From assembly GCA_003990765.1 (NCBI GenBank), contig RBNJ01000251.1:1-35430 (forward strand): a stretch of DNA of 35,430 nucleotides, in the 5' to 3' direction. The first letter of the stretch is position 1. Every line of letters starts with the position of its first letter. Made by a program: the position numbers and the translations under genes. The stretch is from Jimgerdemannia flammicorona. Its lineage: Eukaryota. Shown piece by piece: positions 1 to 35,430 of the stretch. Below the pieces are notes generated by a model. The model was not told the DNA's origin, searched no databases, and saw only the letters and a program-made list of their open reading frames with translations.

Positions 1-1
1 C

Positions 2-27
2 AATAAAAATCCATAGAGACTTGCTTT

Positions 28-68: not shown

Positions 69-71
<3 letters not shown>

Positions 72-6679: not shown

Positions 6680-6713
6680 CCACTATGTATATATATGTAG
6701 GATGAGGTGGGTG

Positions 6714-6962: not shown

Positions 6963-7196
6963 CAATGTTTTTGCCGTAATGTCGATCTACGCTAGGGAGG
7001 TGTAACTATACTACGTTTTTCGTAATATCAACTACGCTACGCTCACGTGATATCAATCTTCGTGATAAAAACACCAATAACCCCATATCACCGAAATGAC
7101 CATGCATCACCCCGAAATCCTAGGAAAGAAACCTCAAATAAATGATCGATTGTTCTGTATTTGGGTGGAAACACACGGTATAAAAGACCGGCCCAA
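6962..7196 (-). repeat. Split direct repeat B1 (235 bp), abutting A2
   Basis: tcaatgtttttgcc...ggcccaa, matches 6445-6679. Confidence 0.95.
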
Positions 7197-7376
7197 ATGT
7201 TATATATAAAATGTTTGGGATGATGATGTGTGGCAGTGTGAGTTGGCAGCGCCGAAAGAAAGAACTCGGCCCAAATGAAGTAAAAAGGGGGTTATGGATG
7301 TGGAAATGTGAGCAGAGTAGATGATAGAAAGGCGCTGAAGGCTTAATAGAAAGGCCACGCCCAATGTCAATGATAT

Positions 7377-7741
7377 GGCTGGTGTCGTGAGCCGCGCAGT
7401 TAAAACCGAGGGCAGGTGTCACGAATCGTGCGACAGCCAAGGAGCTGATTTTAATGAACCCAGCGATCGAGGGATAGAACTGGTGTCGTGAGTTACGTGG
7501 GGGTCCGAGTAGGCTAGTGTCGCGAGCTGCGCAATAACGAAAAGAAGGAGGGCTGGTGTCGCGAGCCGCGCAATGTCGGAAAAGGTTGGTATTGCGAACT
7601 GCATGGTGGCAAGAGGCTGAGGTGGGTGGATTAAAGGCTGGTGTCGCGAGCCGCGCGGTGATGTAAGGCCGATGAGGAGAGATAAAGGCTGGTGTCGCAC
7701 GCTGCACGGGACCCGGAATAAGCTGGTGTCGCGGGCTATGC
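7377..7741. repeat. Array of nine 21-bp repeats (consensus GGCTGGTGTCGCGAGCCGCGC) separated by unrelated 12-46-bp spacers
   Basis: Copies start at 7377, 7411, 7478, 7512, 7551, 7584, 7636, 7687 and 7721. Confidence 0.9.
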
Positions 7742-7767
7742 GGTAGAAAAAAAGGAACGGGAAATCG

Positions 7768-10448: not shown

Positions 10449-11900
10449 CTAGGGGCGAGACGATGGATTGTGGGAGCATCGATACCATGGATGATCACCA
10501 TTGCAGTGAGAGCAGGAATGCACATAAGGGCATCCTTTTCTATTGCACCCAGGATCCTTCATGGGTGATCCATCGAATAGAATGCTGTTGTATGCCCGAC
10601 AAGTAGACCGTTGAGAGGCTTTCTTGGTAGATGGAGCGGAGGAGCCATCAGTAAGACGTAGCCCCCATGGTATGTTGCGAGACTTGAAGGGCTTAAGTGG
10701 ATTAGATGTAGAGGTCGGAGTTCGCGGACGTTGATGTAGACTAAGGATCATAAAGAGGTCGGGGTCGCGCCGGGCCCAGTGCTCGCACCATACCAAAGAA
10801 ACACCATTGTTCGCGATCTCCGCCAGTCATTTTGTGTGAAAGGAGACATGATAATCGAGAAGCGCGGACCAATATGATGACGTTGATAGTAAAATAAAAT
10901 CCACGGCGTATGAAAAGAATGGAGTAGGATCGGTGAGGCCCGGGTACGCGTCATGAAGAACACTGAAATACGTAAGCAGGGCAGCGAGGAAAGCAGGGAC
11001 ATCCGGAAGATCTTTGATAAGGGATGGCGGCTTTCGAAGAATGATCCGGGCACCCGATTCGTCAAACGTTTCGATGAATTGAGCGTCAGGAAGACCACCA
11101 ATAGAAACGACGTTTCGCTCCAAGAAACGGCTGAGCGACATGGCGGTGAACGAATTGTCGACGACCGCGGCCAACAGCCGTTGATTAACGTGGGCGTATT
11201 TTAACGAGAGATTGATGCCTTGGACAATGGTATGGGCAGAGACGACAGAAGGAGGTATAGGGATAGACTCACCCTGGGGATTACCGGCAGGGCCGTGAAT
11301 GCCGGTGGACCGAACCGAAGGGATAGTCAGTAAGGGCTGAGATAAGGATGGGGATGCGAGAACCGCCGAAAGAGAGGCAGTAGTGCAATCGATAAAGGCT
11401 TGATCGATGATGGGAGACGCGTCCTGACCAGAAATGGCAGGAACTGCACTAGCCGGTGCCGCCGAAGTTACGATGTTGGGGTGAGAGCGTAAGAGCTGAA
11501 AAAGTTTGTCGAACTGATGGTCTTGCACGGATGTATGCTCTTGGAGCTGAGCAACACTGGCTTCGATGAAAACATCAGAGGCCGGTATGCTGAAGAAAGC
11601 TGGTCCGGCCGCCGTAGTGCTAGCAGGAGCCTTGGATGCGGCATGCACCAATAGATGCATGATTCGGCGGGGTGCGGAAGTAGAGTGATTAGGGAGGGTG
11701 GCGAGATAATCCACGAGGATAGCAACATCGGGGTTCTCGCTATCAGATTCCAGGTCGTCTTGCAGAAAACGGAGCACATGCTCGATGAAATTAACGTCCG
11801 AGCGGAAAGGGCAGGTGGTGGAGCCCAGGTCATATTGGCCCTTCGACATATGGGAAGGGTCATATCGATACAAAAGGCAGGAATTTGCGGAGAGGACCAT
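10449..11900 (-). pseudogene. gag: Ngaro gag-like ORF with C-terminal Cys/His zinc finger
   Basis: ORFs 10827-11900 and 10449-10796 are in frame, split by one TGA (probably ex-CGA). Ends in CRAYN..C....C.Y.H.C..C...H....C. Confidence 0.85.
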
Positions 11901-11906
11901 AGTAAT

Positions 11907-12155
11907 GTAATGAAATGCGTACGAATGTACGGAAGCGCAAAAGCATAAGTGTAAAGCGCATATGAAGTAATGTTGGGTGAATGGTAGAATTACATATAGA
12001 AGTAATGCGCCTACTGCGCTAGTACCAAAAAAGGAAAGACTATGCCTGATTTAGAAATGCCTTAGACAAACAACGGCGTTGAAACATTTTGGGCGCTATA
12101 CGCCCAAGACCTTCCTGCATTCATTGACCTGTGGTCTCAAGCGAACCCCCTCATT
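11907..12155 (-). repeat. Split direct repeat A1 (5' end of the Ngaro element)
   Basis: Matches 6714-6962; ends 7 nt upstream of the gag ATG. Confidence 0.95.
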
Positions 12156-15960: not shown

Positions 15961-16099
15961 TAGTAGAGGAAACTATACTAGAGCCCCATATAAGGCAGCC
16001 CTCTTCCTGATATACCTCATGTTATACAAACAAATATCACCTACTTTTACAGTATTCTTTAGAGAAATATCCTAAGAATATATTCTTGAATTGAAGTCC

Positions 16100-19000
16100 T
16101 AAGGAGTACTGGGCAGGATGGCCCCAGAGCATTCAGCTGGCAATATGTGGAGAGGAGTCAGAGAGTAGGGTTGGAGATGCTGAGTACTTTAATAGGAGGA
16201 AGGGGGTTGGTGAGATTGGAGGAAGAGGTATAGTGTGGCCAGGAGGGAATCAGATGAGCTTTGCTGAGAAGCTCAAGCAGAGAGAGCTGATGACTAGATT
16301 GAATAGATAGTTGCAGGGTGGCAAGGGGAAGGCTGCTGCTGGGGGACCAGGTGGGGCTCCCTTGGGGGTACTGAGTAAAAGAACTGGTGGTTTAGTGACT
16401 AGGGGTGTGACTACTGATGAGGCAGTAACTGGCAATCTGGAAAAAAATCCAGATATAACTACTGATAGTGGGGCTGTGAAGATGGGGCCCAGATGGTTGT
16501 GGGATCTGGCAGATAGTGTAATGGGCCTAGCAGTGGCTCTGTTACTCAAGAAGTTGATCTTGGAGTTTATAGTTACTTTGTGCTTCTGGGGCTTAGTAGT
16601 GATAGCAAAAATAGTATTGGGGCTAATTGCTAAGCAGGTGGCTGGTGCAGTATCTGTGAAGTTCCTGAGGGAATTGGAAGAAGTAGAGGTGGGCTTTGAG
16701 GAGGCTGGACTATTGGAGGATATGCTGAAGACTGGGCTGAATATTGGGAAGGTGTGTGTCTGATGGCATACTGCTTGAGGTGGGTCCCCAGGGTGGTACA
16801 ACTTCTGGTGAAAGAGTATCTATGATGACTGCTGTAGAGACAAGAAGAGAGTCAAGGAAGTCATAACTGAGTATGGGGAGGTGGTTGATGTTGGGTTTTG
16901 TGTCTGAGAAGAGACCTCATTCAGGACTAGAGATGTTGATATCCAGATTCAGTTGGCCAGGAGAGAGACTACTGGGAAGACTTAGGATTGGCCTTTAGTG
17001 ATAATATGGTGGGCCTTTTTATATAAGGTGATCGGAGTAAAGAGGAGTGAGAAGGAGGAAGAAAATTTGTTTGAGGCACTAGAAGAGCTGAGTAGTATAG
17101 TAGAGTGGAGGGTGAAGGCTTGGAAGGTATATGTGAAGTTGATGCATTTGGAGATAGTGGATGGAAAGTGAGTCTATATTGATAAGGGGCTATGGAAGAG
17201 GTCTCAAGAATACAAGAGACAGAGAGAGTTACTAGCTGATCTGGAGGAAAAGATGAAGAGGATTACTGGTAGAATTGAGGATACTGGGAGAGCCAAAGTG
17301 AGTGTCTGGACTAGTGAAGGCAGAGGGAATAGAGAGGAGGGTCTGGAGGAGACCAGGAAGGTGCCAAGCAACAATCTATAAAAAGATAGTATGTTTGAGG
17401 TCTGGAAGAATACTCCTCCTCTTATCAGGTAGAGTTCAGTCTTGAGGGGCTGGGCAGCAGAGGATGTACCTATGTGAGATACCCAGTAAGTATACTTTGG
17501 AGTTTTTGAGATAGCAAAAGGGGGACAAGTAGTAGTGGCTAGTGAGAATGAATTGGTGGATGTCTCAGAAGATGAGTGAGATGAGACTATAAGTACAGGG
17601 ATTGATACCTCAATGCTGGAAGAAGGGAGGCCAGTAACTCAAGATGGGAAGAAGGTGGAAAACCTATAATAGATGTGCCAGATAATGAATAACTTAGCAG
17701 CTTGGAAGTTGGGAGAAGTGGACCTAAGAGTGCTTAGTGATAATTATTGGGTATAGATCCTATATAGAGATAGAGTAGTAGAGGTCCTGAAGGTGGAGGT
17801 GCTTGCAGTTTTCTTAGAAGAGGAAGGATATAAGGTTGATAAGACAAGAGAGGCAGAGCTAGTGATTACTGCTGGTGAGCAGGCTACCCACTAGTGGGTG
17901 GAGAGATATGGATTACAGCTCTGGCAGGAGGCCTGCTTGGAGTATTATGAGGACTTTGAGAAAAAGGAGAATGGAGAGCTAGCTAACCTACTGGTTGAAT
18001 TGGAGGTGAAGAGGGTTAAAGAGAAGGAGGTGGCTATTGAACATAACTTGGACTTAGCTCAGGAGGAGATAAATATGGAGTTATAAAAGATATACTTGAC
18101 TTTTAACATTACTTTTTATAAATAGTATAATAAATATTTTTTCTTTGAATATGAATGGACTATAGGGATCAGTTCAATATTTGAATATTTTTATTTAGCT
18201 AAAGAGATTGAAAGCTGATCTCTTTCTTTTGCAGGATATTAGATGTAAAGATAACTTGAATAGACTGGAATAGACTGGAATAGATGAAGGAATAAAGAGG
18301 TAAGGTAATTTGGAAGGACAAGGTTGGGATCCTGGTCCAGAGAGATGGAGGGAAGATATAAGATGTGAGGAGCTGAGGAGATAGACTGGTTTAGAGAGAG
18401 TGAATTTGACCAGGTTGAGAGCTGGTTACAGTAGATTTCTGCTACTACTTACTGTGTAGAGTAAATGAGTAGAATGGGTGAAGAGACTCCAGAAGAGTGG
18501 GGCCCTTGCAGAGACTGGTGTGGATATTCTTGGAGAGGACTTTAATATGGTCTAGGATATGCTGGTAGATAGAACTGACAGAGGGTGGAGGGCTGAGGAT
18601 AGGAGCAGGGGTCTGGAGATGTGGGAGGAAGTAGAAAGGCTGAGCTCTCTGGTGGATGCTGGCAGGGAGTTCTGGGGAGATAGGAGGGTATATATGTACT
18701 GGAAAAATGGCCTGGGGACAAGAATTGACTGGATGCTGATGGTGGACTTCTGAGGTATAGATGTTTGGAAGTCACTAGAAGCTGAGTGGTGTCTATGGTC
18801 TAATCATTTAGAGCTATTGAGACAGGTCATTTCAGGGGGAGTGTGGATGGGTCTGGACATTGGCACCTCAATTCCTCTTTATTGGCTGAGAAGGTATTGT
18901 GAGACAAGTGGGCTGAGAACATTTGGCAGTGAGTAGAGGATTGGATATAAGAGGGTATCTCAGTTGGTGTCCAATGAAGAAGGCTACTAGGGATTACTGG

Positions 19001-19400
19001 AGTGAGGCTGGCAAGGTGGCAGAAAGGTAGAGGAGAAGGAGGGTGACCTGGGCTTCTGCTAGATTGGCTCAGCTTCTGGAAAATTGGGTATATCTTTTAG
19101 CCCTGGAGGGAGTGGAGAACTGGAGGTTGATGTAGGTCAAGCTAGAGGTTGCTGAATTACAACAGATATTGAGAGAGAAAAAGGAGATGTAGGTGAGCTG
19201 CACAGTTATGCTAACAGAAGCTGAAGGAGGGGGAGAGGTTCTCTAAGTACCTTTCAAGGATCCTTCAGACAAAGAGAGTGAGGTAGAGATGAGAGAGAGT
19301 ACTAGATTCTAATAGTCTGCTGGTGCATAGCCCATAAGACATTCTAGGCTTATTAAAGGAGAGGTATAGAGATTTGTAAAGTGAGGAGGAGGGTGGGCAA
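16100..19400 (+). mobile_element. Degenerate L1-clade LINE copy 2 (ORF1 + endonuclease), cut off before RT
   Basis: ORF1 with KKNPDI..., EYGEVVDVGF..., ending EINMEL* at 18086. ORF2 from 18118 (IFSLNMNG; EDFN at ~18535; TRIDW at ~18718). Boundaries approximate. Confidence 0.8.
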
Positions 19401-21617
19401 TACACCTTTCACTGATAATATTAGGTGATACAAAACTCAGACAATACTTTCTGCAACGTTTTTGGTAAAAGGAGACTATCAATATAGACAGCAATGACTG
19501 TACTAGTGAGTATGTCAGCCAGGGGAGCAGCAGTGCCTTTGACTGGCAGCATGTCAGGAGGAGATGGAGGGATGGTTTGGGGATACTGGAGCCTTCTATG
19601 GTTGGTCATGGTGTTGGTGGTGGAGGGAGGGATGGATAGAGACAATAAGGAGGGGGGAGGACAACCTTTGCTGACAAGGTCAAGATGGAGAGAATGGTAT
19701 CTGGTCTAGGTAGTTGATTGGGACTAGAGAATGTGTTGATGACTGCAGTTGGGAGATAGGGAGGGGCCCACATGGGAGAGTTGGACAGTAGGGGGGGGGG
19801 GAGAGAGTAGGGGCTGGATATGTGACTACTGATGGAGCTGCAACTGGAGATCTGGAAAAAAAAATCCAGATATGATAGTTGTGGGCAGATTAGGACAGAG
19901 GGAGGGTATGAGGCCTGGAGACCTGGCAGATGGTATAACTGGTATGGTATCAGTACCATTACTCAAAAAGTCAAGGTTAGAATTTGCTGTCACATTATAC
20001 TTCTGAGACTTAACAGTGACTATGAGGATAATTTTGGGGTTAGTGGTATAGGAGGTAAAGGGGGTGGCTTCAGTGAAGTTCTTGAAGGGGAAAGAAGGAG
20101 TCAAGGTTGGATTTGAGGAAGAGATGTCATTGTTGGAGGCCTTGGAGAAGGGGGTAGTAGTGGGTGGAGTAGTGGTTTCTATGGCCAGATGCATACACTG
20201 GAACCCTCAAGTGGTGTAGTTGACATTGTTAGATCTTCCTATGATGTTGAGGGAGAGGGCCAGGGAGCTGATTGTGGAGGTAGTCAAGGAGTATGGGGAG
20301 ATCATGGATATCAGGTTCAGTGTCTGGGAGGATACTGAACTCTGGATCAGAGACATTGACATCAGGGTGAGGCTGGCTGAAAGAGAGAATATAGGGAAGA
20401 TAAGGGACTGGCCTGCAACTCTTAAGTGAGAACAAGTTGAGTGCAAAGTCTCATGGATAAAAGGAATGCCAGAGAAAGAGAAGGACTTGCTGGAGACTCT
20501 TGAGAATTTGGCAGAAGCAGTTGAGAGGAGGAGACTGGCTTGAAAGGAGTATGAAGCCAAGACAGTGGTGGAGATTGTAGATAGAAAGAGGATCAGGATG
20601 GACAAGGTGGCCTGGGAGAAGATATAGGGGAGGTGAATCCAGAAAGAGTTGTTAGAGAAGCTAGAAGGAGGTGTGGCAGATAGTGGGGCAGGAGAAGGTG
20701 GTACTGGACTGAGGGAGAGCACCTGGGCTGGGGAGTGTAGGATGGCTCAGGATGCGGCCCAGGGCAGATCAAGTGAGGAGGGACTAGGCAGCATAGTGGA
20801 GGATGCAGAAATGGGAGAGGAAGTATACCCTCAGTATGGTGACCTGGGTGGTGCAGGGGGGGAGGAGAAAATACTGGATGTACTGGAGAAGGAGTGGGAT
20901 GAGTCAGGAAGGAGGAGTGCTTTGGTGGACCCTGTGGTGGGGGTCAAAGGAGTTGCTCAGGGTGTTGCCAAGGCAGTGGATGAAGAGAAGTAGCTATGGG
21001 AGACTCTGGAGGGAGTGGCAGCTGAGGAGCTGGGGAGAGAGAACTTCTGGATACTAAGCAATAGGCATTGGGAGGAGATTTTGCATGGTGAGGAGGTACC
21101 AAGAAAGATTAGGAATGAGATTTTGGTAGTGCTCTTGGAGTCAGTGGAATATCAAGTTGATGATCAGAGGGAGGAGGCCCTCTGAGGGATGGTAAATAAC
21201 TGGGCAGAGTACTTGTGGGGTTCAAGAAAGGGGTTAGAGAAGTGGAGAGTAGTATGCATGGATTATTAGGCAGAAATAGAGGTTGTGGATGGGGTGGAGT
21301 GTTAGGAAATCCTAGAAGCACTGGATGTTCAGACTGTAGTAGAGGATGAGTTGGAGGCAGAGTGGTACTTGGAACTGACTAATGATAAGATGAGTATGGA
21401 ATACTAGACTAGGCTCTCACTATAAAACATTATTCAATATAAACAGTATAACTAAAATCTTTTCTTTAAATGTGAATGGATTGAGAGGAGTAGTACAGTG
21501 AAGGGCTGACTAAAGAGACTGGATGTGGATCTCTTCTTACTGCAGAATGTACAGTATGAGATAGATGTGGACTTATAGAACTGGACTAGAGAATGGGGTG
21601 GGGCAGCTTGTGGACTG
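19400..21617 (+). mobile_element. Degenerate L1-clade LINE copy 3, 5' part (ORF1 and start of ORF2)
   Basis: ORF1 homologous to copy 2 (KEYGEIMDIRFSVWEDTELWIRDIDIRVRLAERE), stop at 21407. ORF2 ITKIFSLNVNGLRG from 21439; interrupted by the LTR element. Confidence 0.82.
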
Positions 21618-23735
21618 TGTAATAGAGTTGCTTTTTAAGGTAACCATTATGTAGTTCTGGAAAGGTTTTCTGGAGGTTCTGGATATTCTGGAAGACCGTT
21701 TTCTTATGGTCAAGATCAATTTCATATGGAGTACATCCTCTATACTTTTTGATTTCAAGTTTGGGTTGACGTCTCAACCAAAGTCCTTTTTCAGACTAAT
21801 TCTGGATGTTCAGGATTTTCCATGTTTCAGGAAGTTCAAAAAACTAAGACCAGCTTAGTTGAATTGGCATATCACTGCAGACAATACCCAATTAGGAAAT
21901 TTCATAACAGGGTTAGGAGTGGGACCTAATGGGGAGCGGATTTACTTAAGAGTGGTTTGTGGGTTATTGAATAGGTTTATTCGCTATTCATGATATTGCT
22001 ATACTAGGAGTAGTTGTGTGAAGGGATATTGTGGGGAAGTGCTCAGGAGTTGTATTCAGATTGTTCAGGTCTGAGATTCTGAGATCTGGGGGAGGGGGTA
22101 TTTATACTAGTGAGGGGCTATCTGGACTATGCTAGATATGGATATAGCACTAAGTGCCTTGCTGAGTCGGAATGCAGTCACGTAGTACAAGTGTGATCTG
22201 ACATGTCAAGAGATTGTCTGACTGCTGAGTTAGTTCACAGTCATGTCGTATAAGGCTAATCTAACTATACTATGACTGCTAGGCTATTTATGGTTTAGGC
22301 ACTGTCTGGGTAGTCCTTGATGACATCACCATCAATTGCATCATCTCTGATGAAGTAGTTGTCTAGGAAGAGTGGTTTGTGGATTACTTCTCCTTATTCA
22401 CTAAGGTAATAATACATTGGAACTTCATCTCCATCCCACAAGATAGCATCATCTGTCTCATATGCTGGATAAGATGTTGGTGGGCAAAGAAGGGGTGCAT
22501 CATCTTCACTTTCATCAGATTCGCTGTCTGCATATCTTCTGTAGGTTACAGCACTATGAGTCATGGGGTTGTAGTAAGCTGGTGGCTGTAGTTAATGTCA
22601 CTCATACTTGGGTGGTGGAATGGTTGGTTCGATCTCGAGGGTTGTCTGGAGGTACAGGTTGTGTTCTCCGGTCTCTTCATTGTAGTTGAAGTAATCGGGG
22701 GTGAATGCAGGTTAGTATTCATGCCAGTGGTCATTTTCCCAATAAGTCTCAATTTTTTTTTTTCAAGTGTCAGCGGTCCCAAAGGACTTGACTCCCAATA
22801 AGTCTTGTATGCTATCATAAATTGTTGTAAGTTCATTGGCAAGGTTGGCAGTGTGATCAGGGTTGGCAGAGATCCTTGGCTAGAGGTCATGTCAGTGTCA
22901 GAGAGATCATTGTCTTCTGCTTTGTCTTCATCGAAGTAGATTATATCATAGATGTCCTTCCTGGCATATCCAACTTGGGGCATTTGCAGAATATGATCAT
23001 TGGGGTATAGGAAGGTTCTGTCTGTGGTTTTGATGTACTTGAGGTACTTATGGTTGAGTTCTTATATTATGTCATCGATTTGGCCATAGGACAGGGTAGC
23101 AACCATTTCAGCTATGGTAACTCAGAGGCGGGGAATAACAGTGCTATACTTGTAGAAGAGTTCTCGATGTTTGTAGGTGATGAGCTTCTGGTGTTGAGAC
23201 ATCTGGGTAATGTCTGTATCATAGTGGTGTTCGATCATGTCTTCCAGAAGGCGGCTGATCTGATAGTAGCTTGAGATTTGTCTGATTCGGTGGGCCTTGC
23301 TAAGCATGTTCAGAGCATTCCATCAGGCTTCCATAAAGTAGAGGGGTGCTAGACTATGGATATTCATGAGGGGCAGAGGGGGTGTGGCTCGGTTGACAAT
23401 GGCATTCCAAATGTCAGCGCGGATATGGGTATAGATCTCAGTGGTCATGTTTGTGTGTTTGGAAGTTGTGGTTGCTGTTTGTTTTGGTTCTCTGATTCAT
23501 ACATCTTGGTGCTCAGTATATATGCATTTGGTCCTGATTGGTAAGATTCCATTTGTGTGAATCTTGTATTCTGTGACTTCATATTGACTCAGCATTGTGC
23601 ACTGTGACTTTGGTTTGACTCAGCTTCATGATCAAGCAGGTGATTTCCAGATTTGTTCAGAGGTCATGTGTGATTTCAGTGGCTTGTTCAGAGGGTGACA
23701 TGTAATTTTAGTGGCTTGGGGGTTGTACACTTACA
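21618..23735 (-). repeat. 3' LTR (2118 bp)
   Basis: Direct repeat of 30263-32322; preceded on the minus strand by the PPT. Confidence 0.95.
22295..23448 (-). pseudogene. LTR-embedded ORF of unknown function (~385 codons), 3' LTR copy
   Basis: MTTEIYTHIRADIWNAIVNR...DYPDSA*; interrupted by transition-type stops (TGA/TAA) and one slip in an A-run. Confidence 0.7.
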
Positions 23736-23746
23736 ACTCTCCCCTT
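23736..23746 (-). other. Polypurine tract (AAGGGGAGAGT)
   Basis: Immediately 5' of the 3' LTR on the minus strand. Confidence 0.85.
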
Positions 23747-24157
23747 CTTAGCTTTTGACATTCTCATCGGGACCTTCTAATTTTGTTTTAGTGTTGTTAC
23801 ACCATTTGGGAGGTCAAAAGTCTGGTGAAGTCCATTTTTCTCAGAAAGTGGCATGCTCATAGTACAGTTGCCTAACATGTTGGATTCACATGTAAAAGGG
23901 TCATATGTTCAATGCCATGCACCAGAAGTGATTCTGACATCATTCACTGCTGGAGAATTTCCTCTAAGAAATCTTCTTAAATATCTATGCCTTGTTTCCC
24001 ACTAGTGGTATGTGGAGAATAGGCTTGCTTTCAGTTTTGCTATTTTTCCAAAGGGTCAGTATTCTTGTCTTATTTTGCTGAGTTCTTGATTTTCAATAAT
24101 TATAGTGTTCAGGAGGATAATATATAGTATGTATGGATAGGTGCAGAGTATTTGGTT

Positions 24158-24361
24158 TTAGTTGTTCAAGGAATCATATTCTTGAACTAGGTCAGTAGCA
24201 TTCTGGAGGTTGGTCTTGGGTTCCCAGGTTGCATCATGGATTAGGTAACCTTTCCATTTGACAAGGTACTCTGGGTGGTTCTTGTGGCCATGTTTGTTGA
24301 GGATTTGTTCAACTTCGTACTCTTCTTGGTCATTAATAATGACAGGTGCAGGTGGTTTCAT
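24158..24361 (-). pseudogene. Chromodomain at the integrase C-terminus
   Basis: EEYEVEQILNK...EYLVKWKGY..HDATWEP..NL. Confidence 0.92.
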
Positions 24362-27300
24362 GGTTTGGTTAGGGAATAGTTCATCATCATTCTCATTATA
24401 TCACTTGAGGCATTGAACATTAAAGACTGGGTGAATCTTAATAGTGTCTGGTAGCACCAATTTGTAGGAGGTAGGAGAGACTTGTGCAATGACTTCAAAT
24501 GGTCCAATGAACTTGCTGTTTAGCTTTATAGATGGTCTGTACTTGAGGTTGTCAACTCAGTATCCCCAGATGTCTAGTAGAACTTTCTCTCCAATATCGA
24601 AGGTTTCTTCTTGGCAGTGTTGGTTAACATACTGTGAATGTTGTTCTTGAGCTCACGATAAATTCTCGATTGCGATCTGGCTTAGATTATGCATTTGGAG
24701 CAGGAATTCTTCAACAGCTTTGACTGTAGAGGGTTCTTCAGTAGTTCGGATAAGTGTCAAAGGGATATTTGGGTTTTGTCCAGTATTGGTGAAGAATGAG
24801 GTCATTCCAAGAGTGGCTTGCTTGCTATTGTTATAGGCAAACTCAACTGCAGTGAGGTGTTCATGCCAGTCATCTTGTCTGTAGGAAACATAGTTCCTTA
24901 GCATTTATTCTAGAGTTCAGTTCATTCTTTCAGTTTGGCCATCAGTTTCAGGGTGAAAGGCTGTGGATAGTGCAAGTTTTGTTCCAAGGTGTGTATGAAG
25001 GGCTTTCCAAAAATGGCTGGTGAATTTCAGGTCTCGGTCACTAACAATGATCTTAGGAAGACCATAATAGCAGAAAATATTATTAAACAAGAGTGTAGCT
25101 ATATCTGGTGCTGTTGTGGTAGTGGTGGTAGGCACAAAGTGGGCTTGTTTGCTGAGGTAATCCACAAAGACAACAATTGCATCTTTCCCATTCTTGGTTC
25201 GGGTAGTTGTATAATGAAGTCTATTGAGATTTGTTCCCAATTCGCAGATAGTACTGGGATAGGGTGAAGTAAGCTGGGTTTTGCTAGTGTTGAGGACTTA
25301 TTTCGTTAGTAGGCATCATAAGAAGTGATGTAGGTTTTGAGCTGATCTGCCATGTGGGGCTAATAGAAGTTTTAGGAGATAACTTTATAGCATTTGTCGA
25401 ATCCTAAATGTCCAGCTGTAGGGGCATTATGACATTTGAATAAGATAGTCCTTCAGAGGTCTCAGTTGTTTGGGACATATAGTCTGTCTTTGTAGTAGAT
25501 AGCATTGTCCTTCAGTTGGTATTGATGATACTGTGTATACTTGTCAGCATCATCACTGTTCAGGATTTCTTGAAGTGCTTGAGCTTCCTTATCATCAACA
25601 CATGCTGTGATAATTTGTTCCATGATAGAGTTTGTAACCAAGGTGAGAGTTTGGATAACTTCTTCGATTGGTGGTCTGGAGATTACATCAGCAACAATAT
25701 TTCCCTTGCCAGGGCAGTACTGGATTTCATAGTCAAAGTGGTGAGGACTTTCATCCATCTGGCTTGCTTTTGAGAAAGGGTAGCCTGTATCTTGATATTG
25801 ACTAATGACTTATAGTCAGTCAATACAGTGAAGTGTACTTCTTCTAGGTATGGTCACCATTTAATCAGAGTGTCTATAATGGCTAGCATTTCCTTCTCAT
25901 GGGTTGCATAGTTAATTTCAGCATCATTGAACTTGTGGGAGTGATAGGCCACAGGGTGTCCTTCTTTCATGAGCACTGCTCTAAGAGCTAGGTCAGAGGC
26001 ATCAGTAGTAACTTCATATGGTAGGATAGGATTTGCTGCTTGAAGTACTGGAGTGGTTATCAGGGCATCTTTCAGTGCTTGAAAAGCTGTATCTTGCTCA
26101 GATCCCCAAGTTACAAGATTGTTGAAGTCTTTCTCTTGTTTTATGGTCCAGGGTTGTTCTTATTTCTTGCTGTACTTGGTCATTTGAGTGAGGGCAGTAG
26201 CAATTTTAGCAAAGTTGACAACAAATCGCCTATAATAGTTTGCTAATCCCAGGAATGACTGGAGGTCTTTCAGCTTCTTAGGTCTGGGCCAATCTTTGAT
26301 TGTGGAGATTTTGCTGGGGTCCACCTTAATTCCATTTGGCGTGACAATATATCCAAGGAATTGGATTTCTTTCAGGAGAAATTCGCACTTGCTGAGTTTT
26401 GCAAAAAGTCAGTTTTCTCAGAGTTTCAGTAGTACTAGTTCAAGGTGTTCAAGATGTTCCTCCAGGGTTTTGCTGAAGACTAGGATGTCAACAATGTAGA
26501 CAACAAATTTGTCCAGGTATGGGTGCAGGATAGTATTCATCAGGGTCTGGAAGATTGCAGGAGCATTAGTTAAGCCAAAGGGCATAACAGGAACTCGAAG
26601 TGTCCATAGCGAGTTTGGAAAGCTGTCTTGTAGATGTCTTCTTCTTTCATGGCAATTTGCCAGTAACCATTTTGCAGGTCAAAGGAGCTCATGAATTGTA
26701 GATTGGTGAGCCTATCAAATATTTCATCAATTCTGGGTAGTGGGCAACAATTCTTGATGGTCTGTTCATTGAGGTCATGGTAGTTAATGCACATTCGCAG
26801 GTCTCCTCCTTTCTTGACAACAAATAGGACTAGTGCACCATAAGGTGATACACTGGGTCTGATGAATCCTTGTTCTAGGAGTTCATCAATTTCTTTCTTG
26901 AGTGCATCGATTTCTCTTGGAGATATGTGGTAGATTGACTTGAAGGCTGGTTTGACATCATGGTCTACTGCTCGTTTAGGAGGTAGGCCTTTCAGGAGCT
27001 TCTTTGGAAATATGTCTCGAAATTTCTGGAGTAGTGTCTGACACAGCTGTCAACTTTGGAAAAATCTTCTTCAGAGTTCTCGGGTTCTCCTTTGGATGGA
27101 TGGATGGAGATGGCAAAGAGAGGGCATTTCTTGGCCAATTTCTTGAGTTGTAGCTTATTGATGTGGGTAATCTTTGGTCCAGGGTCACTAGAATTAAGTG
27201 GGTCCTTTTCACCTTGCAGTTTGAAGTTGTGGTGTCCTTTCTTGATGGTCAGAGAATGGTTTACCCAATCAATCATGGGGTTCTCTTGTTTTAACCATGG

Positions 27301-27690
27301 AGTCTCAAGGATGATTTCATTGTCAGGAAGTGGTACAATTTGGAGAGTAACATGTACTCGGTAATCACCAATTTGGAAGGGCAGATTGCAGACTTCTTTG
27401 CTAATAACATGTGAGGTTCCATCAGCTGTAGCAACTGCTTGAGTTTGCTGTACTGGAGAGGTGAAGACCTTAAGTCTGTTGGCTGTTTCTTCACTGATGA
27501 AGTTGCCTGAGGCACTACTGTCTATCATAATCTTAACAGGTGCTCGGTTGACAAAAGCCTTAAGTGTGAGCAGTTTGTCTGATCCAATGGTGGTGATTTC
27601 AGTTATAGGGGCTTTCCTTCTGTTGGCTTTTCTTTGTGCCAGTTCATTGACACAAGAGAAGCAATCATCAATCATTTGGGAAGAGTACAT
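24158..27690 (-). pseudogene. pol: Gypsy pol: protease, RT, RNase H, integrase, chromodomain (degenerate)
   Basis: IMIDSSASGNFI (PR); [16 protein letters not shown] and KTAF (RT); TDASD and NYATHEKEMLAI (RH); H...AGHLG, IVSDRD and HPETDGQTERMN (IN). Confidence 0.92.
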
Positions 27691-27789
27691 CCCAATGCCA
27701 TGAGGGCATCAGCCACTTGGTACATATCTATCTTCGATCTTCTTGTAGAATTGTTCTTCTTTGCTCATGGTAGGTTGGGCTGGGGCCTT

Positions 27790-28200
27790 GTTTGATGAGC
27801 CAAATCCTTTGGATCCTCGGATGGTAGGTCGTAGTTCAGGGACTTCCTTGACTGTCAGGGTTGACTTGATTTTTTCAAATAAGATCTGGGCAATGCAGAA
27901 ACCTATAGGGATCTTGAAGGGTGTCCAACTATGGTTTTGGATTAGGATAATAATTTCACCTGTATAATCCTCATCAATGACTCCTCCTTTTACTGAGAGT
28001 CCTTTCAATGCTAGGCTGCTGCGACAGCATATTCTTCCAACATGTCCTTCAGGGATTTGGATGCTGATTCCTGTGTAGACTTGTTTGACTTCTTGGTTGG
28101 AAACTGTAGCTTCTTCGGCTGCATATAGGTCATATCCAGCTGCTTTTTGATTCCTTTGGCTGGGGCCTTAGCAGTTTGTCTTAACTTGACAAAGTCTAGT
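27790..28200 (-). pseudogene. dut: dUTPase domain
   Basis: All five trimeric dUTPase motifs: AGYDL, RSSLA, GVIDEDYTG, IAQI, RGSKGFGSS; one frameshift near 28150. Confidence 0.92.
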
Positions 28201-28229
28201 GTTCTGGTGGTCAGATTGTTGAGGTGGTG

Positions 28230-29034
28230 CAGAGTGGTAACTGTTGCTTGTGTTGCTGTTCGGGGTTTTCAGTTAGGGCAGGCACTGGCCATGTGTCCTG
28301 TCTTTTGGCAATAGAAGCATGCTCTGCTTCTTTGCAGTTCATTCCTTTCGCCTTCAGTAAGTTTCTTGAAGGTACTTGGCTGGGTGGGTTTATGATTTCT
28401 AGGTGTCTAAGATGTGGATGTGGAGGGAGCTTGGGATGCTTCATGCTTGGGTTCTTCTTTCTTAGTCCAAGTCCTTTCCTTGTTGTTAAATTGCCTTCAG
28501 GGCAGAATTGGTCTGGCTGTTAGGATTCGCTTGACCATAGTCTTGATTCTTGCCTGGTACCATTGTTGGTGATCACAACCAACTGGGTGGCCTTGTTCTT
28601 GGATTTTTCTAGTAAGCCATTCAGGCAGGGCATCGAATAAATGGTCTGCTCTTGTACCATTTTGTGCTTCATCGTTGGCAATATATCCTAGGCCAACAGT
28701 ATTCAGGAGTGATTCGAGTTTTGTACAGAAGGTTTCGAATTCTTCTTTGCCATGTATATTGAATTTGAGATTGCAGAGTTTTACTCGGGATTCAGCAATC
28801 ATAGTTTCACTGCGGTATTGTACAATCATGAGTTATTTGAGTCCAGGGGCTGCAGGATGGGCTCCATATCCTGGGTCATTGTTTACTGCATTCTGAGCAA
28901 CTACTGCAGGTTGGGTATCCCATGTTAGGGGGTTTTCAGGAAGGGTTCGCCACCATTCTTCAGCAGGTCCTCAGAAGAATGTAACAAATTGGCAGACATA
29001 GGCTGTAGTGGTAGCAAAGAGTTGTTCCAGAATA

Positions 29035-29065
<31 letters not shown>

Positions 29066-29900
29066 AGAGTGTGGTCTTGATTGTTTGTCAAAACACAGTC
29101 AGCAACTCGCTCATTGGTCCATTGATTGGCTTCGAAGTTGGTGTCAACTATGCTAATGAAGCTTTGGACTTCTTGTGCAGTACCATTGAAGGTAGGTAGG
29201 CTCAGATTTTTGGTAGGTCGGGTATGTTCAGCTAAGGTAATAATGGTTGCTGCCATTATGGCTATCTGGGCTATAAGGTCTAGAATCTGTAGGTTCACCA
29301 TGTTGTTTACTGGAGGCAGTTGGACTACTGGTAGTGGTATTACTGGTACTACTTGAGGTACTGGTGCAGAGTGTGATGGGGTTCTTTGGGTCTGTGTAAG
29401 TTGCTGAAGTAATAGTTGTGGATCTGGGGTGAGGGCTTGATAGATAGCTGTTTGTTGCTGTGTAGGTGTATTCTGTCCTGATGGAGGTGCTTCTCCTTCA
29501 GTGGTGTATCTAGGATCGAATTCACTGAGATACTCCTCCTCTTCTTCGGTTTGGTCCTCATGTAATTGGGTTTGCTCACTGTCAAAGTAGACAGAATCAG
29601 TTGTATATCTGATTTCAGATGGACCTAATTCAAAGTCAAGTTCAGGTTCGGTATTGGTTTCAGATTCAGGTAGAGCTGTAGCAGGGCCTGCTTCAGGTTC
29701 AGGGTCAGGTAGTTGATGAAGGGTTTCTCTTGCTTCTTCTTTAAGGATATAGCAGATCTTGTTGTTCTGGAATTGATAGTATAAGGCAGTCTTGGTCCTG
29801 GTGTGGTGAAAGTTGGTAGAGTTGAGCCACTTGGCTACAGAGGCTTGGGCTTTGTAAGGAACTAAGGCTAGAAAGACTACTGCTGTTGTCCTAGGTCACT
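28230..29900 (-). pseudogene. gag: Gypsy gag with acidic/Pro-Gln-rich N-terminal extension and CCHC zinc knuckle
   Basis: LPTFNG capsid-start motif; CFYCQKTGHMASAC at ~28277-28320; reading frame restored when the 37-bp poly(A) insertion is removed. Confidence 0.8.
29016..29068 (+). mobile_element. Solo poly(A) insertion with 16-bp target-site duplication
   Basis: AAAGAGTTGTTCCAGA (29016-29031), AT, A-run, AAAGAGTTATTCCAGA (29053-29068). Confidence 0.85.
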
Positions 29901-30244
29901 TGGATTTGTGGTGCTGACAAAACTCTTGTTAAGAAGAGTAAAGAAGACTTCAATAAGACCTTCTTCATCGTGACTTACTAGGTATAGTGCAAGGAGTTTG
30001 GTGAATAGGGTTTCGCCTATTTGCTGGTTTAACTGGAGTACTTCTTTCTTTGAATGAAGTTTGTCCCACTTGTTGCAGGTGTGGAGGTCAAATTGGCCTT
30101 GTATGTCAGGTTCAATTCACTACAGATTGTCAGATAGTTCAGGATAAATTCCAGTTCAGAGGTTGGGCTTTATATGAACTTGTAGGAATTCTCAGAAGGG
30201 GTTGTAGCAGGATGAGGAAGTATCTTGAAGTGGAATTGGATTGT

Positions 30245-30259
30245 AAACCACTGCTACCA
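30245..30259 (-). other. Primer-binding site TGGTAGCAGTGGTTT, initiator-Met-tRNA-like
   Basis: Starts with TGG 3 nt after the 5' LTR; TGGTAGC matches 3' ends of known eukaryotic tRNAiMet. Confidence 0.7.
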
Positions 30260-30262
30260 AGT

Positions 30263-32322
30263 TGTAATAGAGTTGCTTTTTAAGGTAATCATTACATAGT
30301 TCTGGAAAGGTTTTCTGGAGGTTCTGGATATTCTGAAAGACTGTTTTCTTATGGTTAAGATCAATTTCATATGGAGTACATCCTCTATGCTTTTTGATTT
30401 TAAGTTTGGGTTGACATCTCAACCAAAGTCCTTTTTTAGCCTAGTTCTGGATGTTCAGGATTTTCCATGTTTCAGGAAGTTCAAGAAACTAAGACAAGCT
30501 TAGTTGAATTGGCATTTTGCTACAGACAATACCCAATTAGGAACTTTCATGACAGGGTTAGGAGTGGGACTTAATGGGGAGCAGATTTACTTAAGAGTGG
30601 TTTGTGGGTTATTGAATAGATTTATTCACTATTCATGATATTGCTATACTAAAAGTAGTTGTGTGAAGAGATATTGTGGGGAAGTGCTCAGGAGTTGTGT
30701 TCAGATTGTTCAGGTCTGAGATTCTGAGGTCTGGGGGAGGGGGTATTTATACTAGTGAGGGGCTATCTGGACTATGCTAGATATGGATGTAGTACTAAGT
30801 ACCTTGCTGAGTCGGAATGCAGTCACATAGTATAAGTGTGATCTGACATGTCAAGAGATTGTCTGACTGCTGAGTCAGTTCACAGTCATGTCATATAAGA
30901 CTAATCTAACTATACTATGACTGCTAGGCTATTTATGGTTTAGGTACTGTCTGGGTAGTCCTTGATGACATCACCATCAATTGCATCATCTCTGATGAAG
31001 TAGTTGTCTAGGAAGAGTGGTTCGCAGATTACTTCTCCTTGTTCACTAAGGTAATAATACATTGGAACTTCGTCTCCATCCCACAAGATGGCATCATCTG
31101 TCTCATATGCTGGATAAGGTATTGGTGGGCGAAGGAGGGGTGCATCATCTTCACTTTCATCAGATTTGCTGTCTGCATACCTTCTGTAGATTACAGCACT
31201 ATGAGTCATGGAGTTGTAGTAAGCTGGTGGCTGTGGTTCATGTTGCTCATACTTGGGTGGTAGAGTGGTTGGTTCGATCTCGAGAGTTGTCTGGAGGTAC
31301 AGGTTGTGTTCTCCAGTCTCTTCATTATAGTTGAAGTAATCAGGGGTGAATGCAGGTTGGTATTCATGCCAGTGGTCATTGTCCCAATAAGTCTTATATG
31401 CTGTTATGAATTGTTGTATGTTCATTGGCAAGGTTGGTGGTATGATCAGGGTTGGCAGAGATTCTTGACTAGAGATCATGTCGGTGTCAGAGGGATCATT
31501 GTCTTCTGCTTCATCTTCATTGAAGTGGATTATATTGTAGATGTCCTTCATGGTATATCCCACTTTGGGCATTTGCAGAATATGATCATTGGGGTGTAGG
31601 AAGGTTCTGTCTGTGGTTTCAATGTACTCAAGATACTTGTGGTTGAGTTCTTGTATCATGTCGTCGATTTGGCCATAGGATAGGGTAGCAACCATTTCAG
31701 CTGTGGTAACTCAGAGATAGGGAATAACAGTGCTATACTCATAGAAGAGTTCTCGATGTTTGTGGGTGATGAGCTTCTGGTGTTGAGACATCTGGGTAAT
31801 GTCTGTATCATGGTGGTGTTTGATCATGTCTTCCAGGAGGTGGCCGATCTGATAGTAGCTTGAGATTTGTCTGATTCAGTGGGCCTCACTAAGCATGTTC
31901 AGAGTATTCCATCAGGCTTCCACAAAGTAGAGGGGTGCTAGACTATGGATATTCATGAGGGGCAGAGGGGGTGTGGCTCGGTTGACAATGGCATTCCAAA
32001 TGTGCACAGATATGGGTATAGATCTCAGTGGTCATGTTTGTGTGTTTGGAAGTTGTGGTTGTTGTTTGTTTTGGTTCTCTGATTCACGCGTCTCAGTGCT
32101 CAGTATATATGCATTTGGTCCTGATTGGTAAGATTCTGTTTGTATGAATCTTGTGTTCTGTGACTTCATATTGTCTCAGCTTTGTGCACTGTGACTTCAG
32201 TTTGACTCAGCTTTGTGATCAAGCAGGTGATTTCCAGATTTATTCAGAGGTCACATGTGATTTCAGTGGTTTATTCAGAGGGTGATATGTAATTTCAGTA
32301 GCTTGGGGGTTGTGTGCTTACA
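30263..32322 (-). repeat. 5' LTR (2060 bp)
   Basis: Direct repeat of 21618-23735, lacking 56+2 bp. Confidence 0.95.
30940..32035 (-). pseudogene. LTR-embedded ORF of unknown function, 5' LTR copy (251 aa still open, 30940-31695)
   Basis: Same protein as 22295-23448; 2-bp deletion near the start and two shared TGA stops. Confidence 0.7.
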
Positions 32323-35300
32323 GACTGGGTGGGTGGGCATTCTGGTTCAAAAGGGGATAGAGGACATTGGGGATATTGGACATTGGGGGAGTAGATTGGT
32401 GTGGGGAGTATGGAAGAGGCCTGGGTGGAACCCTTTGACTATTGGATCATATTATTGCCTGGCTGAGAGGGGGGAACACATAAATTGGATCAGAAACTTG
32501 AGGAAGACTAGTGTTATGGGTGAGGTAGGGATTAATTGCCTGGGGGGTAATTTCAACATGGTATATGATAATAGGTAGGATAGGACTGATGGTGGAAGAG
32601 GAATGAGAGGCAGAAGTGGTAGGTTGGATGATTGGATGGAGATTGAGAGGTTGAGCTCCTTGGTTGACTCAGGGTGACAGTTTTGGGTAGATCACTGAAT
32701 TTATACCCACTGAGTGGCAGGGCTGGGCTCCAGGATTGACTAGGTGTTGACAGTGGAGTACTGGGGAGTAGATGTCTGAAACATGCTGGAGGTGGTTTGG
32801 TGCCCATACTTGGATCACTGGGGTCTGATAGAGAGTGGGAGATTTGGGAGAAGTGGGGATAGGCCTGGACATTGACAACTGAATTCTTCTTTGTTGGAGG
32901 ATGGTTCCTTATGGATAGACTGAGAGGTGGAAGTTATTGAGAAGATTGGTAGGTGGCAGGAGCAGGGATTGGTAATTGGGGATCACTGATAGTGACTGAA
33001 ATTGAGTGCTCAGAGGTACTGGAGGGAGGCAGGGAAAGGAAGGAGTGCTCAGTAGTGGCAGCAAGTGCAATGGGCTTTACAGAGATTGGCAGTGCTTCTG
33101 GGGAGGTGGGCAGAGTCGCTGGAGGATTGGGGGTGGCTGATTGGTGAATTCTGTAGATACAAAAGAAAGTAGATGAGCTAAAGGAAGTATTAGGAATGGA
33201 GAAAGAGGTTTAGCTGAAGGGGATGGTGGCAAGGTTGCAGTAGCAGGGGTTGGAGGAGGGGGAGAGGCCCACTAGATTTCTTTCATAGTTGCTCCAAGCT
33301 CAGAGAACTAGACAGCAGTGGGATGGTATTTTGGATGAGGATGGAAATTTATAGAGTGAAGAAGAAGGGGGTGAGAATGTCTGGAATATTGAACAGCATT
33401 TGGAGGATTGGTATCTGGACCCAGTATTGGGCCTGGGGATACTAGGCAATCCAGTGTAGGGGGAGGAAGTATGTAAGGTCTTGGCTTCAACAAGTAAGGG
33501 GACAGCTCCAGGAGAGAATGGGCTTCTCTGGGATTTTTGGAAGAAGATAGTTGGGGTGGAGATGGTATTGGAGGAGATGATAGTGATGTATAGTGAGGTC
33601 CTTCAGTCTGGAACTTAGATTGAGAGCCAGCACCTAGGGCTGGTCTCCTTGCTCTATAAGGATAAGGGGAGAAGAGAAGATTGGAAGAACTGACAACTGA
33701 TCATGCTCCTTGACATGGACTGCAAGCTGGTGACAAAGATCTTAATAACTAGACTGTAAGGGATCACTCAGCAGATGCAAGGAGTGGAGCAGAGGAGATT
33801 TGTTAGTGGTCAGTTGATCCAAGATGGAACTGCCTGAGTTCATGGGGTGATTAAAGAGGCTCAGACAGCTGGGGTTGATGGCCAGTTAGTATTTCTAGAT
33901 CAGGAGAAGGTATATGACAGGGTGAGGAGGGTCTGGCTAGAGAGAGTGCTGAAATATGTGGGAGTTCTCCCAGAGTTCAGGAGGTCATTAATCAGCCTAT
34001 TGGAGAACAGTCAAGCAGGATTAATAGTGAATGGGCACAGGGGTGTGACTTTTCCACTAGGTTGCAGGGTGCTGCAAGGGGATCCTTTATTACCTATCCT
34101 ATATGCCCTTTCCTTGGAGCCCCTATTGGACAGGATTTGGCATTGAATTGGGGTTTTGGACATTTTGGAGATTAACTGGAAGGTTGGGGCTTTTGTAGAT
34201 AATATGGTGGTTGAACTGAGTTATTAGCAGATGTAGAGGAATTAAGAATGACTGTGGAATGGTATGATAGGAGCTCAGGTGCTTGACTCAACTGGCACAA
34301 ATGTGAGACTCTGGTGCTAGGTGGCAGAATAGTTGGTGGTGATATGATTGGAACAGTGGTTCTAGCAGGAGAACTGGTCTGGTACTTGAGAATATACTTT
34401 TCAGTATATAGGTCCCTCTTGCTCCATATATGGTGGGAACAGCAGCTACTAGTATGGAGGAATGTTCTCTTGAGGTGGGGTGGTTGGTATATATTCTTGA
34501 CAGGAAGGATGATAGTGCTGAATGTGTAATGGCTGCCAAAGCTGTGGTATATAGGGTATTATCTGACTTCTCAGCATGGGTGATCAGGTAACTTCTGAAG
34601 ATGACAAGATCGTGGATTTGGGCTAGATAGTAAAGTCAGATAGGCTGGAAGGTTCTGACTCTGCCTGTTGATAGAGGCAGACTGGGCTTAGTAGACTTTA
34701 CCAAGTGCCTATATTGCCTGAGAGTATGGTGGCTGAAGAGAGTGAGTGAGTTGAGAGGCTGGGAGTAGGTACTACTCATACAGAGGGTGTGGGAGGTCTG
34801 GTATTCCCCTCATGGAGCAACTGGTGATCTGCTTGCAATGGTGGCCATGGATGGGAGTAAGAGGATATATTATAATGGTTTTTGGTAGGGAGTGGTGGAT
34901 AGTGTAAGAAGAATTGAACTTCAGTAGAGGAGTGATGAGGGGGTAGAGGACTGGGGACCACAGATGTGGAGATGAAACTGGCTACTGCTGGGAGGTATAT
35001 TGAAGGAGGACTTTCAGCTTGGTGATGGAATGGAATATATGAGGGGACTCAGGGGGGATGTGTGGCCTAAAGCATGGCAAAGGGTGGGGATTGGTGAGAA
35101 GTGGGACTGGAATAGTATTTGGCCTTAGAGTGAGCAAGTGATGTGATGGCTTCTCCTCAATTTCTGGGTGGTATGGTGGAGGTTCCTAAGGTGGAATGTA
35201 ATGCTGAAATATCAGTCAGGGCACTTGGGGGCAGACAGCATGTTTGAGTATAAGGAATACATGGACATTGGCCAGGAGGGAGGAGTGGTACAGATGTCTG

Positions 35301-35430
35301 AACATTGGCTAGAGGAGTGTAAAGTTTTGGGGAAGGTTTGGTACAGTATTTCTAGTAGACTAGAATTGTAGCCCCTGATGGGGGGGGGAAGGAGGGAGAT
35401 GGGGGGACCTCTAGTGAAGGTTAGTAGGTA
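32323..35430 (+). mobile_element. LINE copy 3, 3' part (ORF2 endonuclease and RT), runs off the window
   Basis: GGNFN, APGENG, KN*QLIMLLDMDCKL, FLDQEKVYDRV, LQGDPLLPILY, AFVDN (ex-FADD), GRMIVLN...LPKLWY; typical of the L1 clade. Confidence 0.9.

Follow-up and report, generated by a model that had tools for sequence, protein, structure and literature searches.

An open reading frame within both long terminal repeats of a decayed chromovirus from Jimgerdemannia flammicorona: evidence for a real gene, with a candidate promoter of its own

Accessory genes in long terminal repeats (LTRs) are known from a few complex retroviruses. The closest analogue of the case described here is sag of mouse mammary tumor virus (MMTV), which lies as a whole gene in the unique 3' (U3) region of the LTR and is thus carried at both provirus ends and in every LTR; it belongs to a vertebrate retrovirus and encodes a type II membrane glycoprotein. 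The nef gene of human and simian immunodeficiency viruses (HIV, SIV) and bet/bel2 of foamy viruses are 3'-end accessory genes that overlap U3 and serve against host defences. For retrotransposons, Chang and Schulman are said to have described in 2008 two TATA boxes in one LTR of the barley element BARE, giving rise to different RNA classes; both BARE promoters drive element RNA, and no gene is known to lie between them. In Tca5 of Candida, only the start of the gag-pol open reading frame (ORF) lies inside the LTR. Extra and often orphan ORFs occur in several retrotransposon lineages, including ORF1 of Ogre, Tat/Athila, other plant aORFs and the ORF3s of bdelloids, and in the accessible portions of the sources such ORFs are described solely between the LTRs (PMC7264820, PMC6431247, PMC5408684). 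Here we describe an LTR retrotransposon of the Ty3/gypsy group from Jimgerdemannia flammicorona in which an ORF of 365 codons lies inside both LTRs. The element occupies positions 21618-32322 of the minus strand of contig RBNJ01000251.1 (assembly GCA_003990765.1), whose 35,430 nucleotides are called the window below.

The 3' LTR (copy A; 21618..23735, minus strand, 2118 nt) and the 5' LTR (copy B; 30263..32322, minus strand, 2060 nt) both have TG..CA ends, and both contain one and the same sense-strand frame, running from an ATG (23448 in copy A; 32035 in copy B) to a TAA (22295-22297; 30940-30942). In copy B, the ATG is at LTR position 288 and the stop at 1381-1383. A first-pass annotation of this DNA had noticed the ORF in both LTRs, and its coordinates, 23448-22295 and 32035-30940, were reproduced exactly; its length estimate of about 385 amino acids has to be lowered to 365 codons once private indels are removed. 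Both frames are damaged. In copy B (30940..32035, minus strand), codons 42, 54 and 109 are TGA and 2 nt are deleted after codon 11, and the stop-free part (30943-31710) corresponds to the last 256 codons. Copy A (22295..23448, minus strand) has seven stops, at codons 42, 109, 129, 227, 265, 267 and 333, and a 56-nt insertion (22752-22807). Compared with the other copy or with the metagenome protein P0004 (see below), all stops differ by transitions, as the first-pass annotation had described, except those at codons 265 and 267: the stop at codon 267 reflects a transversion (GAA vs TAA), and codon 265 differs at two positions. The 56-nt insertion consists of about 43 nt ending in A11 within a 13-nt direct target duplication, AGACTTATTGGGA; it resembles a tiny retroposed piece and is possibly a severely 5'-truncated non-LTR insertion. 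An upstream ATG in copy A was rejected as a decay product, the TG sites there being CpG-derived (ACGCG in copy B).

Several properties mark the frame as coding. In 1000 dinucleotide shuffles of the copy B LTR, the longest stop-free run had a mean of 95.6 and a maximum of 250 codons, so that the 256-codon open run of copy B exceeded all of them. The frequency of G was 0.26, 0.10 and 0.13 at codon positions 1, 2 and 3, and position 3 was C-rich and G-poor, as it also was in the gag, protease (PR), dUTPase and reverse transcriptase (RT) pieces of the element. The codon-position composition of the ORF is that of a coding region and matches gag-pol.

Relatives of the predicted protein were sought by word-indexed searches over 5.8 billion clusters, divided by length class, and by an exhaustive HMMER search over 1.84 billion representatives. 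The word-indexed searches gave matches for one of 456 candidates of near length, one of 32 shorter ones and none of 984 longer ones. HMMER returned three matches at E<=0.001, two of which, P0003 and P0004, are true relatives; the third, P0005 (E 1.3e-05), was discarded as a repetitive chance match, in which six repeats fell on a 38-residue stretch. P0003 and P0004 are metagenome proteins from different sources; the contigs that encode them measure 998 and 1180 bp, and neither protein shares its cluster with another. P0004 is an N-terminal piece of 128 amino acids that begins at the same start Met and is 85% identical to the ORF of the window. Since it has Arg at all three TGA positions of copy B, these stops are CGA-to-TGA changes. 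P0003 (247 amino acids; E 6e-100) covers the C-terminal two thirds. When aligned with P0002, the translated open part of copy B, it was identical at 158 of 250 positions (63%) and positive at 205 of 250 (82%), with four gap columns that form two in-frame gaps and with no stop.

For comparison, the 256 codons of the window were evolved neutrally to 63% amino-acid identity, in 1000 runs each at kappa 2 and kappa 10. Only 4 and 15 of the respective 1000 runs stayed free of stops, and the conservative share of replacements in the neutral runs was 0.30-0.32 (maximum, 0.47), against the 0.53 observed with P0003. These sequence comparisons indicate that purifying selection acts at the protein level between two gene lineages, and that the protein was kept while the LTR family diversified. 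No longer, fused or cellular homologue was found among the 5.8 billion clusters, with their 984 longer candidates, or the 1.84 billion representatives; no host origin was seen for the LTR gene in these searches. DNA of the relatives was also looked for by pattern; none of the matches in metagenome contigs (55 and 257), viral contigs (41) or prokaryote genome contigs (58) was confirmed.

The presence of the ORF in other copies of the family was assessed with short contigs (about 150-400 nt, shorter than the LTR) of four public runs, which were aligned to window positions 29800-32500 at 80% likeness. Three of the runs are DNA-type (X1, X2 and X4, two of them from one coded organism) and the fourth, X16, is of uncertain type. 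Across the four runs, 3504, 410, 481 and 279 contigs aligned, at 80-100% identity. All three DNA-type runs had depth in every bin of the ORF; in X1, this depth was about a fifth to two thirds of that in the best-covered LTR bins. Contig joints skipped just 55-144 nt, and none deleted the ORF. At position 31713, a G, which yields CGA (Arg) instead of the TGA of codon 109, made up 35 of a depth of 60.2 in X1, 18.8 of 18.8 in X2 and 14.5 of 30.4 in X4. The 2 nt absent from copy B at 32003 were present in other copies, namely, in 9, 5, 3 and 2 contigs of the four runs. We conclude that the ORF segment is part of an LTR family present in very many copies and that the window copy carries some private lesions. 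The first-pass annotation had named an unrelated nested insertion as a case that would speak against its reading; no such insertion was seen, the contigs of the four runs covering the LTR including the ORF. Soil metagenomes are among the 17 public runs with matching sequence, none of which is entered as RNA; together with the dUTPase domain and the RIP-like mutation spectrum (see below), they make a fungal origin plausible. Taken together with the coding signal, these data make it very probable that the ORF is a real gene present family-wide in the LTR.

The copy in the window has decayed in a characteristic way. The LTR pair is 93.0% identical (1916 of 2060 aligned positions), differing by 132 transitions and 12 transversions; 79 of the transitions are in CpA/TpG and 26 in CpG context. 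CpG is strongly depleted in the LTRs, with 23 and 14 observed versus 88 and 82 expected. This spectrum looks like that of repeat-induced point mutation (RIP) or of methylation-driven deamination. Because of this deamination-like spectrum, the 7% LTR divergence is not usable as a neutral-clock age. Of the ten disabling lesions, eight occur in one LTR only. The stops at codons 42 and 109 are common to both, and both are CGA-to-TGA changes at CpG sites. Six CpGs are found in both LTRs, 16 only in copy A and 8 only in copy B, from which about 51 ancestral CpGs were estimated, each with a chance of 0.42 of having disappeared from both LTRs. Given this double-loss chance, the shared stops are explicable by parallel decay. 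Of the codon differences between the two ORF copies, 24 are synonymous and 51 non-synonymous; codon position 1 accounts for 33 of the changes, position 2 for 18 and position 3 for 29. This comparison looks neutral, as decay after insertion predicts; it is uninformative for the ratio of non-synonymous to synonymous change (dN/dS), because a single template gave rise to both LTRs when the element inserted. In our reading, this copy lost its activity after insertion, by C-to-T mutation and small indels.

The ORF product is acidic (pI 4.1-4.4) and contains 8-9% Tyr and 8-10% Pro. It has no hydrophobic segment, the maximum 19-residue hydropathy being 1.02. We predict a soluble protein whose N-terminal domain, some 125 residues long, is helical and whose C-terminal half is rich in Tyr, Pro, Asp and Glu. 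Structure prediction, which the first-pass annotation had proposed, and searches for related families, sequences and folds identified no family, structure or fold: Pfam gave no family for P0001 and two sub-threshold families for P0002; a search of PDB sequences gave no match below E 0.5 (best, E 0.53); Foldseek found no match in the PDB to the model of the N-terminal domain at E<=0.001; and the ESM Atlas returned no usable match for P0002 and, for P0004, a heterogeneous set sharing at most 155 features. PPxY motifs, present at two places in the window copy, were rejected as a conserved feature, none occurring in P0003. The protein could be a trans-acting accessory factor that helps the element to replicate or counters the genome defence of the host. 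We hold such an element-serving accessory function, for which conservation within a mobile family argues, as a tentative proposal somewhat short of an even chance.

Read in element orientation, the LTR shows an ordered set of motifs around the ORF. Near its start lies a 32-nt tandem repeat of about two copies (32239..32299, minus strand, LTR position 24-84 in copy B; 23653-23718 in copy A), followed by a 31-nt tandem repeat of 2.2 copies (32151..32217, minus strand, position 106-172). The 31-nt repeat contains TGAGTCA, which we take to be an AP-1/Gcn4-type site, once in copy B (32203-32209) and twice in copy A (23616-23622 and 23585-23591), and it is a possible enhancer. Next come CCAAT (32124-32128, minus strand, position 195; copy A, 23537-23541) and TATATA (32104-32109, minus strand, position 214; copy A, 23517-23522), which together (32104..32128) form putative promoter 1. 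About 190 nt downstream of the ORF is TATAAATA (30744..30751, minus strand, position 1572; copy A, 22099-22106), putative promoter 2, for the genomic RNA, and 125 nt further on is AATAAA (30621..30626, minus strand, position 1697 of 2060; copy A, 21976-21981), a putative polyadenylation signal. All motifs noticed in the first pass were thus found in both LTRs and in the same order; the distance from TATATA to the ATG is 74 nt, slightly more than the approximately 70 nt first given.

In the arrangement that we favour, the LTR is longer than usual because a true 365-codon gene lies inside it. TATAAATA and AATAAA would mark the usual end of U3 and the repeat (R) region, which would place the ORF within U3. 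From the upstream module of two tandem-repeat sets, CCAAT and TATATA, a monocistronic mRNA of about 1.4-1.5 kb would be transcribed that ends at the LTR's own AATAAA, and TATAAATA would start the genomic RNA. Every LTR, solo LTRs included, would then be a self-contained gene nested in the control region of the element. Judged from the motifs, the placement of the gene in U3 with its own promoter has about an even chance of being right. We regard the favoured explanation as a whole, i.e., a complete dead chromovirus with an LTR gene in U3, an own mRNA and a trans-acting product, as evenly balanced between holding and failing.

Two other ways of expressing the gene have to be weighed against this arrangement. 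The ORF could lie in R, which would then be about 1.4 kb long, with TATATA as the sole genomic promoter; it would be the first cistron of the full-length RNA, repeated at the 3' end, and ribosomes would reach gag-pol by reinitiation or internal entry. So long an R region, whose polyadenylation signal has to be ignored in the 5' LTR, would be unusual, which weighs against this layout. So does the position of a consensus TATAAATA and then of the LTR's only well-placed AATAAA downstream of the ORF, where the end of U3 and R are usually arranged. The module of repeats, CCAAT and TATATA, in turn, stands at the LTR start like a normal U3 promoter, with the ATG 74 nt on, and plant Ogre elements have an extra ORF upstream of gag, as far as the accessible part of the source describes them (PMC6431247). 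On balance, we consider an ORF in R unlikely. Alternatively, the ORF could be in U3 and have no promoter of its own; its subgenomic mRNA would then arise by splicing of the 5' leader onto an acceptor that precedes the ORF in the 3' LTR. An ORF in U3 is present once, at the 3' end, in each genomic RNA. The known retroviral U3 genes (MMTV sag, HIV nef) are mainly expressed in this manner, which favours it, but CCAAT and TATATA at the canonical distance from the ATG in both LTRs speak for a promoter; this counterargument is weak, as both LTRs derive from one template. Expression by splicing appears quite improbable to us.

The remaining alternatives concern the nature of the frame itself. The LTR could have captured a gene, of the host or foreign, that spreads as a passenger and brings no benefit to the element, its conservation reflecting recent capture or selection for a host function. 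The two shared stops fit this idea, since they allow for transposition of an element whose ORF is broken, and LTR retrotransposons do capture extra ORFs, as reported in the accessible parts of PMC6431247 and PMC5408684. Yet the searches described above gave no cellular, longer or fused homologue (1/456, 1/32 and 0/984 candidates; two true relatives in 1.84 billion representatives), the codon-position composition matches gag-pol, and an amino-acid divergence of 37% with the frame kept points to long residence under selection. We therefore judge a mere passenger to be improbable, with only a small chance of being correct. That there is no gene at all, the frame being open by chance in A/C-rich sequence or through a cis-acting constraint on LTR DNA or RNA, draws on two observations: the shuffled LTR also yields long open runs (mean, 95.6; maximum, 250 codons), i.e., its composition favours open frames, and no protein family, fold or structure was matched. 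Against this, the 256-codon run beats 1000 of 1000 shuffles and the frame spans 365 codons across CpG-derived stops; the G1/C3 codon-position pattern is typical of coding DNA; and, with all gaps in frame, the conservative share of 0.53 with P0003 lies above the maximum of 0.47 reached in 2000 neutral runs. We consider the absence of a gene extremely improbable.

Some findings weigh against the favoured arrangement of an LTR gene with its own promoter and a trans-acting product. TATA, CCAAT and AATAAA are short motifs in A-rich sequence, and CCAAT occurs five to six times per LTR; transcript starts, polyadenylation sites and the borders of U3, R and the unique 5' (U5) region were placed from motifs only. 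The two shared stops may mean that the transposing parent was already defective, and the ORF accordingly dispensable in cis, and in two runs the TGA form accounts for about half the depth at 31713. The evidence for selection comes from an amino-acid comparison and a simulation, not from dN/dS, and gene callers report open frames only, which biases the relatives that are seen. Moreover, the first residue of P0003 corresponds to an internal Met, and its N-half could be disrupted or lie beyond the contig. Finally, the AlphaFold2 predictions were poor: residues 1-121 gave five helices at a mean pLDDT of 57, and the whole ORF, with a mean pLDDT of 31, gave nothing usable.

The stretch 21618-32322 on the minus strand is one complete Ty3/gypsy LTR retrotransposon whose internal part is full of stops. 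Its first-pass classification as a chromovirus was borne out by Pfam matches that include an integrase (IN) core and a chromodomain, six of the twelve scanned internal ORF pieces giving domain matches. The paired LTRs, their TG..CA ends and a short target-site duplication are all present, and the domains follow the order PR-RT-RNase H-IN on the minus strand. The element is a Ty3/gypsy chromovirus, complete but decayed and now dead. The 5-nt target-site duplication GACTG (plus-strand letters) is at 32323..32327, upstream of the 5' LTR in element orientation, and at 21613..21617, downstream of the 3' LTR. The primer-binding site (PBS), TGGTAGCAGTGG (30248..30259, minus strand), begins 3 nt past the 5' LTR; it may resemble initiator tRNA-Met. 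A polypurine tract, AAGAAGGGGAGAG (23737..23749, minus strand), precedes and adjoins the 3' LTR. The stop-broken gag region (28200..29895, minus strand) was read by its CX2CX4HX4C (CCHC) zinc knuckle motif, the gag pieces giving no Pfam match; a run of 22 A at 29034-29055 (T22 on the sense strand) disrupts its reading frame. All on the minus strand, a dUTPase domain (27709..28167; PF00692, E 8e-35) lies between gag and an aspartic protease (26992..27708; RVP_2, E 4e-11), and these are followed by RT and RNase H in pieces (25854..27049; RVT_1, 8.8e-08; RT_RNaseH_2, 3.5e-26), the integrase core (24917..25297; rve, E 5.2e-06, with 27.1 bits for the fragment below the Pfam cut-off of 32.6) and, at the end of pol, in the C terminus of the integrase, a chromodomain (24158..24400; Chromo PF00385, E 2.7e-16). 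Besides the two LTRs, the window contains no further LTR copies.

One side observation concerns run X16. Its contig depth was 158-1331 over 30346-30709, just past TATAAATA, 0-23 over the ORF and 0 over 29982-30254, which includes the PBS and the start of gag. Depth in the three DNA-type runs was far more even. The X16 pattern would agree with a main start site located past the ORF; the label "RNA?" of this run is a guess, and the pattern was not counted as evidence, since neither the level of an RNA nor its ends can be read from contig depth. If X16 is RNA, short R/U5 transcripts dominate in it.

The window contains further repetitive DNA. A second retroelement, at 6445-12155 on the minus strand, has a higher G+C content of about 0.5, an RT (RVT_1) at 9273-10232 and a 356-amino-acid ORF (7771-8838) that gave no Pfam match and that by eye presumably resembles a tyrosine recombinase. 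It is bounded by 249-nt direct repeats (6714-6962 and 11907-12155), has a further 247-nt pair (6445-6691 and 6962-7208) and looks DIRS/Ngaro-like. On the plus strand, a 276-amino-acid open frame at 4243-5070, in an AT-rich stretch, matches DUF6570 (E 2e-08), a domain known from the N-terminal part of helicase proteins of the Helitron type. An extreme G-over-C skew of 0.4-0.55 on the plus strand marks the DNA that flanks the chromovirus (1-3000, 16000-21617 and 32323-35430), and a 16-nt tandem repeat is located at 32353-32388. No Pfam match was obtained in the flanks for frames of at least 70 amino acids, the scan having covered 43 of 88 frames of this size outside the element. The chromovirus seems to have been inserted into a G-skewed flanking repeat.

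Compared with the described systems, the ORF is placed most like MMTV sag, in that it likewise lies entirely inside the LTR. It has no sequence similarity to sag, however, and it encodes a protein with no hydrophobic segment in a retrotransposon that has no env. Neither Pfam nor PDB sequences nor the Foldseek fold search revealed homology to sag, nef or bet, and the LTR ORF appears at most to be an analogue of the sag/nef-type U3 genes, not a member of them. While nef and bet/bel2 start in the internal region and overlap the LTR, here the whole gene, together with its candidate promoter and terminator, is inside the LTR. With BARE, it would share the use of two promoters in one LTR.

The extra ORFs of Ogre, Tat/Athila and the bdelloid elements differ in lying in the internal region, ahead of gag or after pol, as far as the accessible parts of the sources go, whereas the present ORF is inside the LTR. 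In the accessible part of the review PMC7264820, no phrase places an ORF in, within or inside an LTR. By domain content, the element can be likened to the dUTPase-bearing fungal chromoviruses PosPlaTy3 of Postia placenta, those of Phanerochaete chrysosporium and Tmt1 of Tuber, which have a dUTPase in pol and a chromodomain, as here (PMC2864245, accessible part). That part of the source mentions an "add. ORF" for these elements in a figure legend only and describes no ORF inside their LTRs. In full-text literature, including the accessible parts of PMC7264820, PMC6431247, PMC2864245, PMC4139406 and PMC6875170, and with subscription papers (e.g., that on Tmt1) and supplements outside the scope, we found no LTR-borne gene in an LTR retrotransposon; in the papers found, the phrase "LTR ORF" mostly belonged to MMTV.

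A gene in the LTR is present in two copies per insertion and survives the LTR-LTR recombination that deletes gag-pol. As a consequence of this double copying and survival, no internal gene has the same dosage or evolutionary fate. Transcription from a promoter of its own would make the solo LTRs a large dispersed gene family and would give each repeat two nested transcription units. The furthest-reaching form of this proposal, which we consider rather doubtful, is that each LTR of this abundant family is an autonomous gene, composed of enhancer-promoter, 365-codon orphan ORF and terminator, and that a trans-acting protein is spread from full-length copies and thousands of solo LTRs. An orphan product that is found only in this lineage and appears conserved at the protein level is a tractable candidate for a factor in retrotransposon-host interaction in a soil organism rich in transposable elements. 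If the proposal is true, the LTR gene would be the retrotransposon counterpart of the U3 genes sag and nef, perhaps aimed at the host genome defence.

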